Virus record (IMG/VR): IMGVR_UViG_3300047440_000809
Location: 1 to 64,000 of that record
Direction: 5' to 3' (one strand)
From: a virus
Length of the DNA stretch: 64,000 bases
Shown here: piece after piece, positions 12,721-47,751 of the stretch
Numbering within the stretch: the first letter of the stretch is position 1
Layout of the letters: every line of letters starts with the position of its first letter
Translations under genes and position numbers: made by a program
The notes under the pieces: generated by a model
The model's input: only the letters and a program-made list of their open reading frames with translations
Database searches by the model: none
What the model was told of the DNA's origin: nothing

Positions 12721-14392
12721 GGCTCAGCGACTGCAACTTCGCGAAGAGCCCGTCCACGATCTCCTCGTTGGACTTCCCGCCGAGCATCGTCGCCAGGTCC
12801 GCATTGCCCTCCTGCTGGCCCATCGTGGACTCCAACACCGCCAGCTTCTCCACCACGGTCTCAGCGTGGCCCTCGTCGATCGTGCCCGCGGCGATGATGT
12901 AGCGGACCATCACGGCGTTCTTCGAGTCGAACCGGTGGCAGCGCTTCTCGGCTTGCAGCAGCTTCCAGGGCTCCGCGATGAGGTCCCCGAAGATGACGAG
13001 GTCGGCGCCCACGAGCGAGATCGCCACGCCGACGCTGTCGATGGTCGCCACGAAGCAGCACGGCGCGCTCGCGTCGCGGAACGTCGTCGCCATCTTGTCG
13101 CGCCCCTCGGGGCTCATCTCTCCGTGCACGATGAGCACCGTCGCGTTGTCGACCTTGTCGTGGATCGCCTTGCCCACGGCGTCGCACTGCTCGCGCATGT
13201 ACAAGAACACGACGACCTTCTGCCGCGCGTTCAAGGCGTCGATCGCCTGCTCGATGACCGCCGGGCGCTTGGCACGCGCTGTGTGGCGGAACGCGGCCGC
13301 GACAGCGTTGCCCTTGTCCAGCGCCTTGCGCCCTTCGTAGCGGGTCGGCGCCGTCAGCTCCACGTCGACCTTGTAGACCTCGCGCTGGAACGGCGGGAGT
13401 TGGAGACCCACAGACGCCTTCGTGCGCATCAGTAAGAAGAAGCTGAGGCGCTTCCCCAGCTCCTCTGTTCGGCTCGCGCCCTTGTCATCCATCCCGTAGG
13501 GGCCTGCTACTCCACCGCCGTACGCCTTAATCCAGGGCCAATACTTCCCCGCTAGACCGCCCGTGATGATGTCTAGGAGCGCCCACAGGTCCCGCACGAA
13601 GTTGGGCATCGGCGTGCCGGTCAAGCCCCACACCACCGGGACCTTCGCGCACAGGTTGCGCACTGCCGTACCTTTCTGCGAGCTACGCCCACGGAGGATG
13701 TGCGCCTCGTCATTGATGACGATCAAGAACTGATTCGTCAGCGTCTTCCCCCAGCCTGGGGTCTCCACGCTTTCGTGCATGACCCCCAGTGCGTCGGCGC
13801 GGCGGTCGCCGATGATGATGTCGTAGTTGGCGACGATGTACCGGGTCTGGGGAATCTCCTCGGGGCGCCGGCCGTCGAGAATCGCGGCGTCGCATCCCGC
13901 CCACTTCTTGATTTCGCGCTGCCACTGCCGCTTCGCGAGCGCGGGGCACAGCACAAGAACGACGGGCGTCGTGGCGCTCGGGATCGCACCGAACGATAGC
14001 CGGGCCTCCGCCGCGATGATCGCCTCGGGCGTCTTGCCGAGCCCCATCTCGTCGGCCAGCAGCCCGTAGTCGCGACACGCCAAGAACGCTGAGCCCTCGC
14101 CCTGGTAGTCGCGCAGGCCGGCCATCTTGGCGTACTCCAGCGCGCGTGCCGCGACCATCGGCAGCCCCGGGAATGCGTCGGGCTTCTTGTACGGCGCCCC
14201 CATCACGTTCGCCACCAGCCACGCCGCGTCGGCCGCGCATCGGCTGTCCATCTTCGTCAGCTGGACGCCCGGTGCATGCCAGTCGTCGACGCGCCCGTGG
14301 AAGCGGTAGCCGCGAACCCCGCGTCCGTGGATGGACGGCTGGAGCATCGGGCGCGCGGGCGCGATTGGAAACTGGAGGACTTGACCGTTCAT
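12701..14392 (-). CDS. SNF2-family helicase
   Basis: LRDYQ, LLADEMGLGKT, DEAH, LTGTP, QAEKRCHR. Confidence 0.9.
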   Translation of the reverse strand: MNGQVLQFPIAPARPMLQPSIHGRGVRGYRFHGRVDDWHAPGVQLTKMDSRCAADAAWLVANVMGAPYKKPDAFPGLPMVAARALEYAKMAGLRDYQGEGSAFLACRDYGLLADEMGLGKTPEAIIAAEARLSFGAIPSATTPVVLVLCPALAKRQWQREIKKWAGCDAAILDGRRPEEIPQTRYIVANYDIIIGDRRADALGVMHESVETPGWGKTLTNQFLIVINDEAHILRGRSSQKGTAVRNLCAKVPVVWGLTGTPMPNFVRDLWALLDIITGGLAGKYWPWIKAYGGGVAGPYGMDDKGASRTEELGKRLSFFLLMRTKASVGLQLPPFQREVYKVDVELTAPTRYEGRKALDKGNAVAAAFRHTARAKRPAVIEQAIDALNARQKVVVFLYMREQCDAVGKAIHDKVDNATVLIVHGEMSPEGRDKMATTFRDASAPCCFVATIDSVGVAISLVGADLVIFGDLIAEPWKLLQAEKRCHRFDSKNAVMVRYIIAAGTIDEGHAETVVEKLAVLESTMGQQEGNADLATMLGGKSNEEIVDGLFAKLQSLSHGGFDG

Positions 14393-33150: not shown

Positions 33151-33250
33151 GCCTCCCGCGCGCGCAGGATCCAAGAATTCTTATCCATTTTATTACACAC
33201 ACGTATTATATCGGATAAGAATACTTACATCGTGCGCGCGCGCGAGGGGC
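33151..33250. repeat. AT-rich imperfect inverted repeat (candidate origin or cruciform)
   Basis: Arms 33151-33186 and 33213-33250 (CGCGCGCGCA..GAT..AAG.ATTCTTATCC) around an AT-rich spacer, at the strand switch. Confidence 0.75.
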
Positions 33251-33255
33251 AAAGA

Positions 33256-33495
33256 GTGATACAGGCGGAGCCGGTGGCCGAAGGCGACAAGGTAGTGGTG
33301 GCGCTCGGCACGGGCATCGGTCGGCTGGTTTACCCCTGCGTCGTGTCGAACGACCCCGTGCCCCACCCTGCCGGTGCCTTCTTCCGCGTGTCCCTCGACA
33401 TGTGCCCTCCGCGCCTGGAGGGGATCACCTGGGCTCGTGGATGGGAGGGTCTCGACGCGGACGCGTTCGTCGTCGCGGTGGCGCTCGGGTCGTGA
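33256..33495 (+). CDS. WARGW-family cassette protein 1
   Basis: EGITWARGWEGLDADAFVVAVALGS*. Confidence 0.8.
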   Translation: MIQAEPVAEGDKVVVALGTGIGRLVYPCVVSNDPVPHPAGAFFRVSLDMCPPRLEGITWARGWEGLDADAFVVAVALGS

Positions 33496-33902
33496 AGGTC
33501 AGTGTCAGCACCGCGACCATCACGAGGCCGTCGTCGCCGGCGATGTCCCCGCGCGCCCGGCTCAAGGACGGCGACCACGTCGTGCTGTTGTTTCTCGGGA
33601 GCGTCGTGGAGATCATCATCTCGACCACGCGCAGCGGTACGCGGGACGACGGGCGCTACTGGGCGTCGCCGGCGATGTCCCCACGCGCCCAGCTCAAGGA
33701 CGGCGACCACGTCGTGCTGGCGTTCCTCGGGAGCGTCATGGAGATCATCGTCTCGACCGAGCGCAGCGGTACGCGGGACGACGGGCGCTTCTGGGCGAAG
33801 CCAATCGTGTTCGCGGCGAACGAAGAGGGGATCGCGTGGGCTCGCGGGTGGCGGACGCCAGCGGCACGTGCGTTGAGGGCCTTCGTGGGGCTGACGACGT
33901 GA
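33492..33902 (+). CDS. WARGW-family protein 2 (internal duplication)
   Basis: EEGIAWARGWRTPAARALRAFVGLTT*. Confidence 0.8.
   Translation: MKVSVSTATITRPSSPAMSPRARLKDGDHVVLLFLGSVVEIIISTTRSGTRDDGRYWASPAMSPRAQLKDGDHVVLAFLGSVMEIIVSTERSGTRDDGRFWAKPIVFAANEEGIAWARGWRTPAARALRAFVGLTT
33532..33797 (+). repeat. 132-bp tandem duplication
   Basis: PAMSPRAxLKDGDHVVLxFLGSVxEIIxSTxRSGTRDDGRxWA twice. Confidence 0.9.
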
Positions 33903-43953: not shown

Positions 43954-44294
43954 TGGCACGCAAGTGTGACTGGCACTACGCCCCGAAGACGATCCTGACG
44001 ATGAAGGACGGCACGCGTCCCGTCGTGAGCGCACGCGTCTACCCTCCCGGGCAGCATCCGGCTGCATCGCCGATCGTGAAGACGGTGACGGCCGTGCAGC
44101 TCACTAACGATCGGGGCAATTCGCGCTGGTACGGCTTCGACGATGCGCGCATCGCGGCCAACCTGCGGCTCGTCGCGTGCGGGGGTTTCATCAACCCCCG
44201 GAACGAGATCGCGAAGGACTGGAAGCGCTGTGGGAAGATTTGCAACAACCTGTCTGGATCTCTCGCGGGGTCTCGACGCCGCCGCCGTCGATGA
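43953..44294 (+). CDS. Small protein with Arg-rich C-terminus
   Basis: LSGSLAGSRRRRRR*. Confidence 0.6.
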   Translation: MARKCDWHYAPKTILTMKDGTRPVVSARVYPPGQHPAASPIVKTVTAVQLTNDRGNSRWYGFDDARIAANLRLVACGGFINPRNEIAKDWKRCGKICNNLSGSLAGSRRRRRR

Positions 44295-44557
44295 GCCGCA
44301 AGCGCTACTGCCACGCCGGCTACGACGACGAGGGCCGGGCGCTCTTCACCGAGCACGGCTCTGACGGCACCGAGATGCGCACCATCGTCGGGTCCCCCGA
44401 ATCCGGCAAGCCCATACCACCGGGGCGCGGGCTCGCGCTCGTCACGGCGGAGGCGGATGGCAGGCACGTGACCATGGAAGACGTCGTCATGCCGGGGCCG
44501 GCGCAGGTGGCGACCGAGAGCTACCGGCGCGGCTGGGACGCGACGTTCAAGAACTGA
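44291..44557 (+). CDS. Hypothetical protein
   Basis: GPAQVATESYRRGWDATF. Confidence 0.6.
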   Translation: MSRKRYCHAGYDDEGRALFTEHGSDGTEMRTIVGSPESGKPIPPGRGLALVTAEADGRHVTMEDVVMPGPAQVATESYRRGWDATFKN

Positions 44558-44687
44558 TGAGCGCCGCGTAGGCGAGGAGAGCGTCGACGTCGGGGCCCGA
44601 CCAGCCGCGTGCCCACACGATGCCCTCTTCGTGGACGAAGTCCCCGCTGGCCTGCCCGGTCGAGGCACTCCACCAAAACGTTCCGCC
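44547..44687 (-). pseudogene. Start-less WARGW-family fragment (12)
   Basis: Manual translation ...FVHEEGIVWARGWSGPDVDALLAYAALISS*; in-frame TGA upstream and no start; flanked by 11-bp direct repeat TCAAGAACTGA. Confidence 0.7.
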
Positions 44688-44692
44688 TCAAG

Positions 44693-44806
44693 TCAAGAAC
44701 TGAGTATCCAGAGCCAGCGGACCAGCACGCAGAAGCAGTACCCGAGCACGAGCACCAAGAAGACGATGAGCCCGCCCCACCCGATCTTCTCTTTGTCCGG
44801 GTTCAT
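44693..44806 (-). CDS. Small membrane peptide
   Basis: MNPDKEKIGWGGLIVFLVLVLGYCFCVLVRWLWILSS*. Confidence 0.55.
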   Translation of the reverse strand: MNPDKEKIGWGGLIVFLVLVLGYCFCVLVRWLWILSS

Positions 44807-45306
44807 CAGTTGCTCGCCGCGTGAAGTTGTTTGACGACGAGGCTGCCTAGCGCATGTACGGCCCGTAGTTCCGCGCGAGGCAGAACTCGAACGCCGTCTT
44901 GCGTAGCTCGCGGGGGAGCTTCGCGGCCGTGACGATCCGCCCGGCCTCCTGCAAGCGCTTGATGGTCTGATAATTGGCCCCGCGTTCGCGCTTCGCCTCG
45001 GCGCGCTCGCGCTCGATCTTCTGCTTGCGCTCTTCGGCGGCCTTCGCGCGGACGGCCTTCTTGATCGCGTTCACGGCCGCACCGGTCCACCCGCGGCACC
45101 ACCCGTTGCTGTGGCCCTCGGCCGACAGGTAGTGCGATCCACCCGTACCGGCGGGTTTACCGTCCGTCCAGTCGAACGTGTGGCTGTCGATGTTCGTGAC
45201 GGTCGCGCGGATCGTGTTGATGGCGATCAAGACCTTGTCGCCCTTCTTGAGTGCTACCTTCGCTATCGTCTCCATCTCAGTTGCTCCCGGCGTGAAGTTG
45301 TTTGAC
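44806..45306. repeat. 30-bp direct repeat (28/30 identical) flanking ORF 44847-45275
   Basis: TCAGTTGCTC(GCCG/CCGG)CGTGAAGTTGTTTGAC at 44806-44835 and 45277-45306. Confidence 0.85.
44847..45275 (-). CDS. WARGW-family protein 13 (divergent)
   Basis: LKKGDKVLIAI...AEGHSNGWCRGWTGAAVNAIKKAV. Confidence 0.7.
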   Translation of the reverse strand: METIAKVALKKGDKVLIAINTIRATVTNIDSHTFDWTDGKPAGTGGSHYLSAEGHSNGWCRGWTGAAVNAIKKAVRAKAAEERKQKIERERAEAKRERGANYQTIKRLQEAGRIVTAAKLPRELRKTAFEFCLARNYGPYMR

Positions 45307-45798
45307 AGCGTCGCGTACCAGCAGCTCCTCCGACAGCGTGGGGTCGAGACCCGACACGACCGGCTCGAACTCGTACTTCTTGTAGCCCAGCTCCTTGAGC
45401 GCCCCGCGCACGGCATCGAGCTTCATGCGCTGCGCGGGGGCGACCTTGGGCTCGGCAGCGTCCTCCTCCAGCTTCTCCATGAAGTGCCGCTGGACAGTGC
45501 GCCGGCGCTCGGCCACGTGCATCTCGTCGACTACCCTCCCGACGCGTGCCTCGCGCCCGTGCCAGACCCACGAGAAGAACCCGCGGACCGCGCCGTGCGG
45601 GATCACGAGCATCAGCCCGACCCCGAGCATCACGAGCGCCACGAGCGTGGAGCCGGTCTGCCCGAGCAGCGTGGCCGAGGCGCGGGAGATGAGCTGCCCG
45701 ATGAGACCGCACGTGCCGGCGAAGGCGTAGAAGAACGTGGCGGCGAGCAGCAAGAAGCCGATGAGGAGGCGCTTACGGGCGGGGTGGAGGTTCTTCAT
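45277..45798 (-). CDS. Membrane protein with RuvA C-terminal-like domain
   Basis: Two TM helices; LDAVRGALKELGYKKYE...LSEELLVRDAVKQL. Confidence 0.6.
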   Translation of the reverse strand: MKNLHPARKRLLIGFLLLAATFFYAFAGTCGLIGQLISRASATLLGQTGSTLVALVMLGVGLMLVIPHGAVRGFFSWVWHGREARVGRVVDEMHVAERRRTVQRHFMEKLEEDAAEPKVAPAQRMKLDAVRGALKELGYKKYEFEPVVSGLDPTLSEELLVRDAVKQLHAGSN

Positions 45799-45803
45799 GG
45801 GGG

Positions 45804-45998
45804 TTACTCCTCGCAGTCTTGGTTGCAGTCTTCGCAGTTGGCGCGTTCCTGGTCACGATGGTCAGGACACACCTCGGCTACGTGGGCGGTAGTGTCATCG
45901 GTGCAGTTAGCAGCCATCCACGCTTGTGCCGTCTCGGGCGAGTAGAACTCGTCGGCGACGACCCCCTCCTCGTCCGTGAAAACACCGTATTCAGTCAC
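45804..45998 (-). CDS. Small acidic Cys-containing protein
   Basis: CPDH...CEDC. Confidence 0.55.
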   Translation of the reverse strand: MTEYGVFTDEEGVVADEFYSPETAQAWMAANCTDDTTAHVAEVCPDHRDQERANCEDCNQDCEE

Positions 45999-46264
45999 GT
46001 GCCAACACTATATCAACATCCGTGCCAACCCTCTTGATATCAGCAGCCGCAGCTTCCTGGGCCACCGTGACGGCAATCGTGCTCCCACAGATGATGCAAT
46101 CCCGCCACACGAACAAGACTGTGCCCTTTTCGCCCCACTGGGCTCGGGGGTTGGAGGTCAGCGCGGCCAGCATCTTGGGGTTGCCGGCAATCACCTCGTG
46201 GTCTTCGGTCAGGTGCATGGTCGTGATATCGACAGGTCGTGTTATGTCTTTAGCAGCGCCCGCT

Positions 46265-46609
46265 TCATGGCTTCTTGTCCGTCGTGAGCGCGTGCGCGGC
46301 GATAGCAGCTCGGAAGGACTCCACGGCACCATTGACGACGTCGAGGGTAGGAGCGAGCTTGGCGTGCGGCAAAGACGTAACCGCGAGAGCACACGACGAA
46401 CAGATGGCCACCAAGGACCCCGCGGCGATGACCGTGCCCTGGGGTTCAACACGCAACTGCTGGGTAATCGACTGTCTGAAGTGGTCCTTGCACCGGTCCT
46501 GTTGGCAGAACGGACACACCGCAAAGAACGCCCGGTCGCACCGTGTTGAAGGCTCGCTGTGCGATCCCGGAATCTCCTCGTCACACACGCGCATCGTCCG
46601 TGTCGACAT
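46265..46609 (-). CDS. Zn-finger hypothetical protein
   Basis: CPFC...CKDH, CSSC. Confidence 0.55.
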   Translation of the reverse strand: MSTRTMRVCDEEIPGSHSEPSTRCDRAFFAVCPFCQQDRCKDHFRQSITQQLRVEPQGTVIAAGSLVAICSSCALAVTSLPHAKLAPTLDVVNGAVESFRAAIAAHALTTDKKP

Positions 46610-47589: not shown

Positions 47590-47751
47590 TCACGTTCTCC
47601 TCCTCGCTGGTGGTTTCCACTGCTCGAACGCCGCGCTGACGTACTCGCGCAGGGTCATCCCCTGCCAGCTCGCGCGGCGGACCATCGCCATGTACTCCGG
47701 ACCGGAGAGCCGCACGATGAGGTAGCGCATGAGGCCGTCGAGCGTCTTCAT
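47590..47751 (-). CDS. Ribbon-helix-helix-like small protein
   Basis: YLIVRLSGPEYMAMVRRASWQGMTLREYV. Confidence 0.55.
   Translation of the reverse strand: MKTLDGLMRYLIVRLSGPEYMAMVRRASWQGMTLREYVSAAFEQWKPPARRRT

Follow-up and report, generated by a model that had tools for sequence, protein, structure and literature searches.

We analyzed a compact gene junction in the uncultivated soil virus record IMGVR_UViG_3300047440_000809 (104,563 bp, 66% GC, CheckV completeness estimate 86%), whose first 64 kb are the whole stretch of DNA under study and are referred to here as the window. At this junction, the 3′ end of one gene is duplicated as a 30-nucleotide (nt) direct repeat, and an unrelated 11-nt direct repeat lies close by. 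Gene A (45277..45798, minus strand) encodes a membrane protein of 173 amino acids (aa) ending VKQLHAGSN*, where the asterisk denotes the stop codon; its N terminus weakly resembles FtsK_4TM (E 2.7e-5) and its C terminus RuvA_C (E 3.9e-4) in Pfam. Downstream lies the WCRGW gene, here called X (44847..45275, minus strand, 142 aa), with an ATG that falls 1 nt after the stop of A (TGAGATG). The N terminus of X belongs to the WARGW family, a putative barrel, and is followed by a helical C-terminal extension ending ..AKLPRELR..AF..; against the hidden Markov model (HMM) of the family, X scores E 1e-3. X ends in TAG, after which come an 11-nt spacer (44836..44846, minus strand, GCAGCCTCGTC) and the inner copy of the 30-mer. 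By direct reading, the spacer does not resemble the stretch of gene A that leads up to the 30-mer.

Beyond the inner 30-mer, the minus strand carries Y (44693..44806), a 37-codon open reading frame (ORF) predicted to encode a single-pass membrane protein, MNPDKEKIGWGGLIVFLVLVLGYCFCVLVRWLWILSS*. An in-frame TGA starts two bases after the stop of Y and is followed by a WARGW fragment (44547..44687, minus strand), a gene remnant of 46 codons that has no start codon and covers only positions 42-90 of the family HMM (E 3.4e-17). A frameshift fusion of Y and the fragment was rejected, as this TGA (44688-44690) closes the frame of the fragment directly upstream. The DNA of the fragment is 71-76% identical to paralogs of the family array over 73-74 nt, a level that rules out a recent copy of an array paralog. 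Convergent with this minus-strand block is gene P (44294..44557, plus strand), which ends DATFKN* and has 87 codons by its ORF coordinates (the database copy is listed with 88 aa).

The two copies of the 30-mer, at 44806-44835 and 45277-45306, are identical at 28 of 30 positions and lie 471 nt apart on either side of X, as a prior sequence-only reading of this DNA had described. The same reading had reported that they duplicate the last codons of the upstream gene, which also holds: on the minus strand, the outer copy (45277..45306) is the last nine codons and stop of gene A (GTC AAA CAA CTT CAC GCC GGG AGC AAC TGA, VKQLHAGSN*), whereas the inner copy (44806..44835) reads VKQLHAASN* and is a noncoding remnant of a gene-A 3′ end, outside any supported gene. 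Their two mismatches, G/C and C/G on the coding strand, sit in the codons GCC GGG of one copy and GCG GCG of the other. Both copies end at the last base of the TGA of A and diverge immediately beyond it (GATGGAG versus TGAACCC). In the outer copy, the motif GGGAG stands 8 nt before the ATG of X; in the inner copy, stop and start codons overlap, the TGA running into the ATG of Y (TGATG). GC content is 40% in the first 15 nt of the 30-mer, compared with 66% for the genome, and neither direct reading nor an inverted-repeat scan found dyad symmetry within the repeat.

With up to seven mismatches allowed and both strands searched, the 104,563-bp record contains exactly these two copies. No local direct repeat is longer than the 30-mer if two genes with collagen-like repeats and a 134-bp tandem duplication within one gene are set aside; the longest repeats in ten local shuffles reach only 14-19 nt. 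The pair is thus certainly far above chance expectation. The DNA around the two TGA/ATG junctions (44790-44870 and 45260-45330) folds less stably than dinucleotide shuffles, 181-189 of 200 of which fold at least as well, a result that weakly fits open translation start regions.

The 11-mer, TCAAGAACTGA, occurs at 44547-44557 and 44693-44703 with 11 of 11 positions identical. The inner copy (44693..44703, minus strand) comprises the last 11 nt of Y (..SS*), and the start-less fragment does lie between the two copies, as had been proposed. Two features had been overlooked: the lower copy falls within the frame of the fragment itself, where it is likewise read SS* and forms the last 11 nt, and on the plus strand, it is also the last 11 nt (FKN*) of gene P. 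The 11-mer runs exactly from TCA, the reverse of the TGA that ends Y, to the TGA that ends P. This span has the look expected of a tail-to-tail overlap of Y and P.

The sequence-only reading had allowed that the 11-nt match might be within chance expectation, and this is so for the pair as such but not for its placement. Shuffled sequences yield 71-99 pairs that share an 11-mer within 1.5 kb, which puts the pair by itself at chance level. Among 135 gene 3′ ends, however, none of 9,045 pairs shares at least 11 terminal nt, and only one shares 10 nt. The placement of the 11-mer at the ends of successive reading frames is not at chance level. The 11-mer is also AT-rich (4 of 11 positions G or C in a 66% GC genome), and a third, unrelated copy lies at 13723.

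The inner copies of the two repeats, at 44806-44835 and 44693-44703, together delimit a single 143-bp unit (44693-44835), which the sequence-only reading missed. The unit holds only Y, including its ribosome-binding region and stop codon. Because both inner copies bound Y, which is not a member of the WARGW family, Y may equally be the piece that moved. No Pfam domain matched Y. By hand count, 32 of 36 third codon positions of Y are G or C, yet its last four codons, ATA CTC AGT TCT, include three with A or T in third position. Read on the plus strand, the terminal bases of Y correspond to TTC AAG AAC, codons that P prefers. Because this deviant end of a gene otherwise rich in G and C at third codon positions (GC3) matches the preferred codons of P, the tail of Y looks borrowed from an overlap with P.

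Y and gene A also resemble one another at a second place. Positions 44749-44770 in Y share 20 of 22 nt with 45744-45765 at the 5′ end of gene A (CTCATCG.CTTCTTG.TGCTCG), at a near-equal distance from the two start codons. Codon shuffles give p ~0.001 for this match, and the similarity of the proteins (p 0.50) is no better than that of shuffles. Y could be a decayed copy of the first helix of A, or the match could reflect convergence of membrane helices.

Contigs from four other runs (X2-X5) served as an independent check. They reproduce all four junctions with 0 differences, and one X2 contig spans 44346-45553; because these independent contigs agree at every junction, the arrangement is not an assembly artifact. 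The same contigs bear on the empty-site alleles that the sequence-only reading had suggested looking for. No form lacking X or the fragment was found and no joints were seen, which is weak evidence, as depth at the site is 2-5x and rare variants are lost in contigs.

To place the junction among relatives, we used gene A. It has 40 metagenomic homologs besides itself, on contigs that reach 150 kb in length; identity is highest, at 69-75%, in those on contigs of 27,662, 38,953, 5,741, 1,724, and 955 bp. The C terminus of A is conserved, reading VKQLHAASN in P0002 and P0003, the same amino acids as in the inner copy here, and HAGSN in P0005. The N-terminal membrane region is invariant (..FFYAFA..CG..LLGQTGS..), and the gene could be a marker for this virus group. 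A search with the gene-A alignment retrieved one IMG/VR record (L006, the 121.5-kb relative G001) and four metagenome loci, all at 46-56% identity. DNA was compared for L002/G001, L003, L004, and L005, which at 46-56% identity in gene A are distant relatives. Scans of IMG/VR with gene A, a 733-aa neighbor, X, or the P homolog P0045 as query found no closer relative with an empty site; GenBank phages gave no match as closer relatives, and bacterial and archaeal genomes gave none to the gene-A alignment or to the P homolog P0046.

The gene that follows the stop of A differs in all loci compared, with four different arrangements: in this virus it is X, L002/G001 and L005 have a Cys-rich gene there, L003 has a mini-ORF and a small membrane ORF, and L004 has yet another gene. 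Because every available relative has a different gene after A than this virus does, rearrangement at the downstream boundary of A is real. The Cys-rich gene (M..RT.R.CD...C..C..D.C..H) lies directly downstream of A at 5570-5990 in L002 and 5598-6481 in L005, and its homolog here is found upstream of A, at 46265-46609. In relatives, it is tandemly duplicated, the copies having similar C termini (..KL.ESK..). The small ORF after A in L003 bears no significant likeness to Y (shuffle p 0.45).

X has full-length reciprocal-best orthologs in L002/G001 and L005 (E ~1e-16) and 15 further database representatives; it is a conserved single-copy ortholog and not a sporadic cassette. In L002/G001 and L005, the ortholog sits directly after a gene we call AAIG, ~4.3 kb upstream of A; the AAIG homolog here lies at ~52.4-52.95 kb on the opposite strand. 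Because its orthologs sit elsewhere in G001 and L005, X changed place during the evolution of the group. Judged by equal contig size and source, X and A apparently share contigs of 3,994, 3,407, 38,953, 100,467, 126,921, and 150,623 bp, and in the two smallest the genes would fit into less space than the 5.3 kb that they take up in G001.

Homologs of P provide a further comparison. P0045, 87% identical to P, ends DATSSA where P ends DATFKN; it otherwise shows only scattered differences, so that the two depart from one another in the last three residues, precisely where the 11-mer begins. By the same size matching, P0045 apparently shares a 13,047-bp contig with P0047, the closest ortholog of X (50% identity, also WCRGW). 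A second homolog, P0046 (53% identity), ends KAFN and carries the NCBI annotation of a hypothetical protein from a Candidatus Eremiobacteraeota metagenome-assembled genome; it was not found when sought among species-representative genomes. Its annotation could be a host hint, or a virus contig could have been binned into that assembly.

We interpret both repeat pairs as scars: recombination, in one or two old events, would have broken open a compact A-Y-P junction. To this reading we assign a probability of roughly 0.6. It builds on the anatomy of the junction and the repeat statistics, and on the findings that relatives carry X at another place and follow A with other genes. Formerly, either here or in a donor genome, A, Y, and P would have been direct neighbors. 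The final 30 nt of gene A would have contained the ribosome-binding region and start of Y, the stop of the one overlapping the start of the other as TGATG, and the last 11 nt of Y would have overlapped the last 11 nt of convergent P, tail to tail. New DNA beside Y could then spare A, Y, and P only if the shared segment stayed on both sides of it. Because shared segments must flank the new DNA, the duplications would be expected to end at stop codons, to differ in length, and to bound the 143-bp Y unit, as they do. The process may have been recombination, illegitimate or guided by short homology, in which the partners were related genomes replicating together or sister copies that had misaligned; the products retained would be those with intact genes. 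The interpretation of the repeats as insertion scars put forward in the sequence-only reading is therefore reasonable insofar as the recombination junctions fall exactly at stop codons; its choice of X and the fragment as the inserted pieces is less secure, as it is equally possible that Y, outside the family, was the one to move.

Two histories, to which we give roughly equal weight, would produce this arrangement. In the first, DNA entered beside Y twice, once as X with its 11 nt and once as the fragment, and each insertion duplicated a shared gene end. In the second, the order A-X-(full WARGW gene)-P came first, and the Y unit, derived from the A-Y-P context of a relative, landed between the two, removing the 5′ half of the WARGW gene; this would echo the adjacency of X and a family gene in L005. 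The second history needs one event and the first two. The second accounts for the family-like ending of the fragment (..ALISS*) and for the HAASN of the inner copy, whereas the first explains why the Shine-Dalgarno motif that the outer 30-mer places before X (GGGAG) is the better one.

Several observations weigh against the scar interpretation or parts of it. The ancestral A-Y-P order can only be inferred, because no relative with an undisturbed A-Y-P junction was obtained, and Y is without a demonstrable homolog. The Shine-Dalgarno-like motif of Y, GGCGAG, is weak, and the role of the inner 30-mer in initiating translation of Y is therefore putative. The end of the fragment (..AALISS*) resembles a native family C terminus (..MALVSS* at 47748), which favors insertion of Y over the scenario with two insertions. 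If the location of X near P is old, as the apparent presence of P0047 and an 87%-identical P homolog on one 13,047-bp contig hints, the noncoding 30-mer should have decayed unless it was selected or the event was recent. Finally, site-specific integration classically leaves direct repeats at gene 3′ ends, and this virus does encode a tyrosine recombinase, albeit 46 kb away.

One alternative, close to what the sequence-only reading had proposed, is that gene-end repeats act as portable homology by which WARGW genes are gained and lost as units, in the manner of the PeSL cassettes of T4-type phages. X would then leave as a 471-bp circle and the fragment as a 146-bp circle, each able to enter similar gene ends again. 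One family gene and one family fragment do lie between direct repeats (28/30 and 11/11 positions identical), X occupies a different locus in relatives, and the region between conserved blocks is rich in small genes of varying order. Recombination between short repeated regulatory cassettes, with mini-circles as products, is documented for T4-type phages (PMC2839356). However, the family as a whole does not appear to behave in this way. The rebuilt WARGW profile matches 21 ORFs in the record (E-values 4e-32 to 1e-3), grouped at 33.1-37.4, 44.5-48.4, 83.5-87.0, and 100.2 kb; a strong duplication flanks X alone, the fragment has the 11-mer pair, and nothing similar bounds the other 19. This speaks against the claim that family members move as cassettes, and of the claim that they are gained or lost as units, it leaves the relocation of X and the variability of the gene after A.

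Scans for comparable gene-end repeats gave the same picture. We sought the last 34 nt of each gene near the end of the next three same-strand ORFs. Among 264 neighboring pairs in this genome, the present case scores 24, and the next best score, 13, comes from paralogous family ends; across 441 pairs in G001, the maximum is 14, between two paralogous Cys-rich genes. A remnant of the A end downstream of A occurs only in this genome, the score of 24 here comparing with 8-9 in L002, L003, and L005. The 30-mer is present just twice, the 11-mer pair has an unrelated sequence, and the repeats carry neither promoter nor terminator: across 44200-46100, we found no promoter-like sites and one terminator-like site, which lies inside Y and outside the repeats, compared with 0.1 and 0.9 in shuffles. 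The contigs of the four other runs, at their low depth a weak indication, hold only the filled form and no joints, and X is a conserved single-copy ortholog as opposed to sporadic cargo. PeSL-type cassettes proper were rejected on the lack of promoter and terminator in the repeats, the presence of two copies only, and the absence of a comparable gene-end repeat in G001. We consider shuffling of this kind unlikely.

Elsewhere in the record, a 24-nt repeat (22 of 24 identical) links genome positions 86104-86127 and 86337-86360. It encodes the DEG.xW motif of two neighboring minus-strand family members and is paralog homology, not a scar. Within the window, positions 33532-33797 contain an in-frame tandem duplication with a 132-nt period (124 of 134 positions identical) inside the WARGW-family ORF 33219-33902, which repeats ...DGDHVVL.FLGSV.EII.ST.RSGTRDDGR.WA. 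Recent tandem duplication is thus at work in the array of family genes.

An origin of the junction by tandem duplication and subsequent loss is as unlikely as cassette shuffling. The block from X to the end of A would have been doubled head to tail and the second copy mostly deleted, leaving in front of Y just X and the 30-nt end of the second A; the 11-mer would stem from a similar event or from chance. The orthologs of X in relatives are located upstream of A, sharing its block and strand, from where duplication and deletions would move X to a position after A, and the 134-bp duplication at 33532-33797 shows a divergence similar to that of the 30-mer. Nevertheless, very precise deletions would be needed, as X starts 1 nt after the stop of A and is followed by just 11 nt. 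The fragment after Y is left unexplained, no other remnants of a second copy of the block were found, and at the expected upstream position of the first copy there is no trace of X.

It is somewhat less probable still that the 30-mer alone is a scar and the 11-mer pair a coincidence, Y and the fragment both ending SS* by chance of codons. The shuffle counts of 71-99 pairs per genome and the third copy at 13723 fit such a coincidence, and as the fragment is not a gene, the sequence-only reading had freedom in placing its "end". Set against these points are the 0 of 9,045 gene-end pairs, the exact bounding of the 11-mer by two stop codons together with its coincidence with the end of a third frame, that of P, and its AT-rich composition.

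Least probable among the processes considered, and in our view quite improbable, is site-specific integration, in which the tyrosine recombinase of the virus inserted X with a 30-bp att-like copy into the end of A, as a mini integrative element or integron-like cassette whose own copy restored the gene. In the standard attL/attR picture, direct repeats lie at a gene 3′ end, one copy being functional and the other a remnant with a few mismatches, and integrating phages restore their targets at the 3′ ends of tRNA or protein genes by means of their own copy. The layout here matches that picture, as the outer 30-mer completes the target gene A and the inner copy is a remnant. The recombinase is a 239-aa catalytic-domain protein at genome position 91,477-92,196 (L016:7477-8196, plus strand; Pfam Phage_integrase, E 9.6e-25), and integron parts have been reported in phages (PMC9892861). 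However, the recombinase is encoded 46 kb from the site and falls far below every NCBIfam cutoff, scoring 51.8 bits versus 265 and 37.1 versus 435 with the integron-integrase models. The 30-mer lacks dyad symmetry, and the 41 nt between the stop of X and the start of Y are too short for an attC site and as single-stranded DNA fold no better than shuffles for either of the two strands (z +1.2 and +1.4). There is no cassette array with a common core site, only the two copies of the 30-mer in 104.5 kb. Because the 11-mer differs in sequence, one enzyme cannot explain both duplications; more generally, the difference in length (30 and 11 nt) and sequence means that no single site or fixed stagger underlies the pair.

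Other known elements were rejected more directly. Protein families were scanned with Pfam in 85 of the 112 GC3-supported ORFs; the 85 include no transposase, HNH nuclease, or reverse transcriptase, and the tyrosine recombinase is the only recombinase among them. No transposase was found among the 10 ORFs around the site, and among the 25 longest of 27 inverted-repeat pairs in 44000-46500, none has arms at 44836/45276 or 44558/44692. A transposable element (an insertion sequence, a miniature inverted-repeat transposable element, or an MPME-like element) was rejected on the missing inverted repeats, the missing transposase in the scanned ORFs, and the unequal duplications of 30 and 11 nt; an integron cassette on the lack of an integron-type integrase, an attC site, and an array with a shared core site; a diversity-generating retroelement on the lack of a reverse transcriptase in the 85 ORFs and on the two mismatches, which are G/C and C/G and not confined to template adenines; and a group I or II intron on Rfam, which returned no intron and no RNA match of note at the site.

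The junction is most like the mosaic joints of phage genomes, which the Hendrix-Hatfull model attributes to illegitimate recombination at gene boundaries. As in such mosaics, the breakpoints lie exactly at gene ends, the neighbors differ among relatives, small genes of unknown function are reshuffled between conserved blocks, and no dedicated enzyme is required. Unlike described mosaic joints in general, this one retains duplications of 30 and 11 nt that exactly match segments shared by two genes. Integrative elements likewise have a direct repeat of a gene 3′ end around the insert and an intact upstream gene; in contrast to them and to integrons, the site has no adjacent recombinase, dyad core, or attC-like fold, and it holds a single "cassette" beside an unrelated second duplication. 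The MPME of mycobacteriophages are ultra-small mobile elements of ~440 bp with 11-bp inverted repeats and one small ORF. Here, 441 bp and one small ORF lie between the 30-mers, a strikingly similar size, but terminal inverted repeats are missing, and the ORF, a single copy in this genome, is conserved, its orthologs having a fixed role in relatives.

The PeSL cassettes of T4-type phages consist of a promoter and a stem-loop terminator present in many copies (Arbiol et al. 2010, PMC2839356; Comeau et al. 2014, PMC4122927). The resemblance is that short repeats flank small nonessential genes in plastic regions and that recombination between the repeats could delete or circularize a gene; the differences are that neither repeat here has a promoter or terminator, that each has two copies, and that the repeats are coding gene ends.

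Overall, we regard this site as the product of ordinary phage mosaic recombination; it shows no sign of a self-moving gene cassette and reveals no new mobility system. Taken alone, it is a single ordinary recombination scar in an uncultivated virus and of modest interest. As a doubtful extension, segments shared by neighboring genes may act as portable joints in this virus lineage, small genes being cut and pasted together with copies of the joint; on the same doubtful footing, the joints would be start regions buried in the end of the preceding gene and tail-to-tail stop overlaps. If true, such joints would do at the level of translation what the PeSL cassettes of T4-type phages do in transcription, and they would account for the ~20 copies of the WARGW family as well as for the scrambling of small-gene order among relatives. 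The site itself is a clean, dated-looking footprint of a change in gene order in a very compact virus genome. Where genes have common ends, only rearrangements that duplicate the shared piece survive, and the former overlaps can then be read from the lengths of the duplications. This rule could recover ancestral gene adjacency in other compact genomes.

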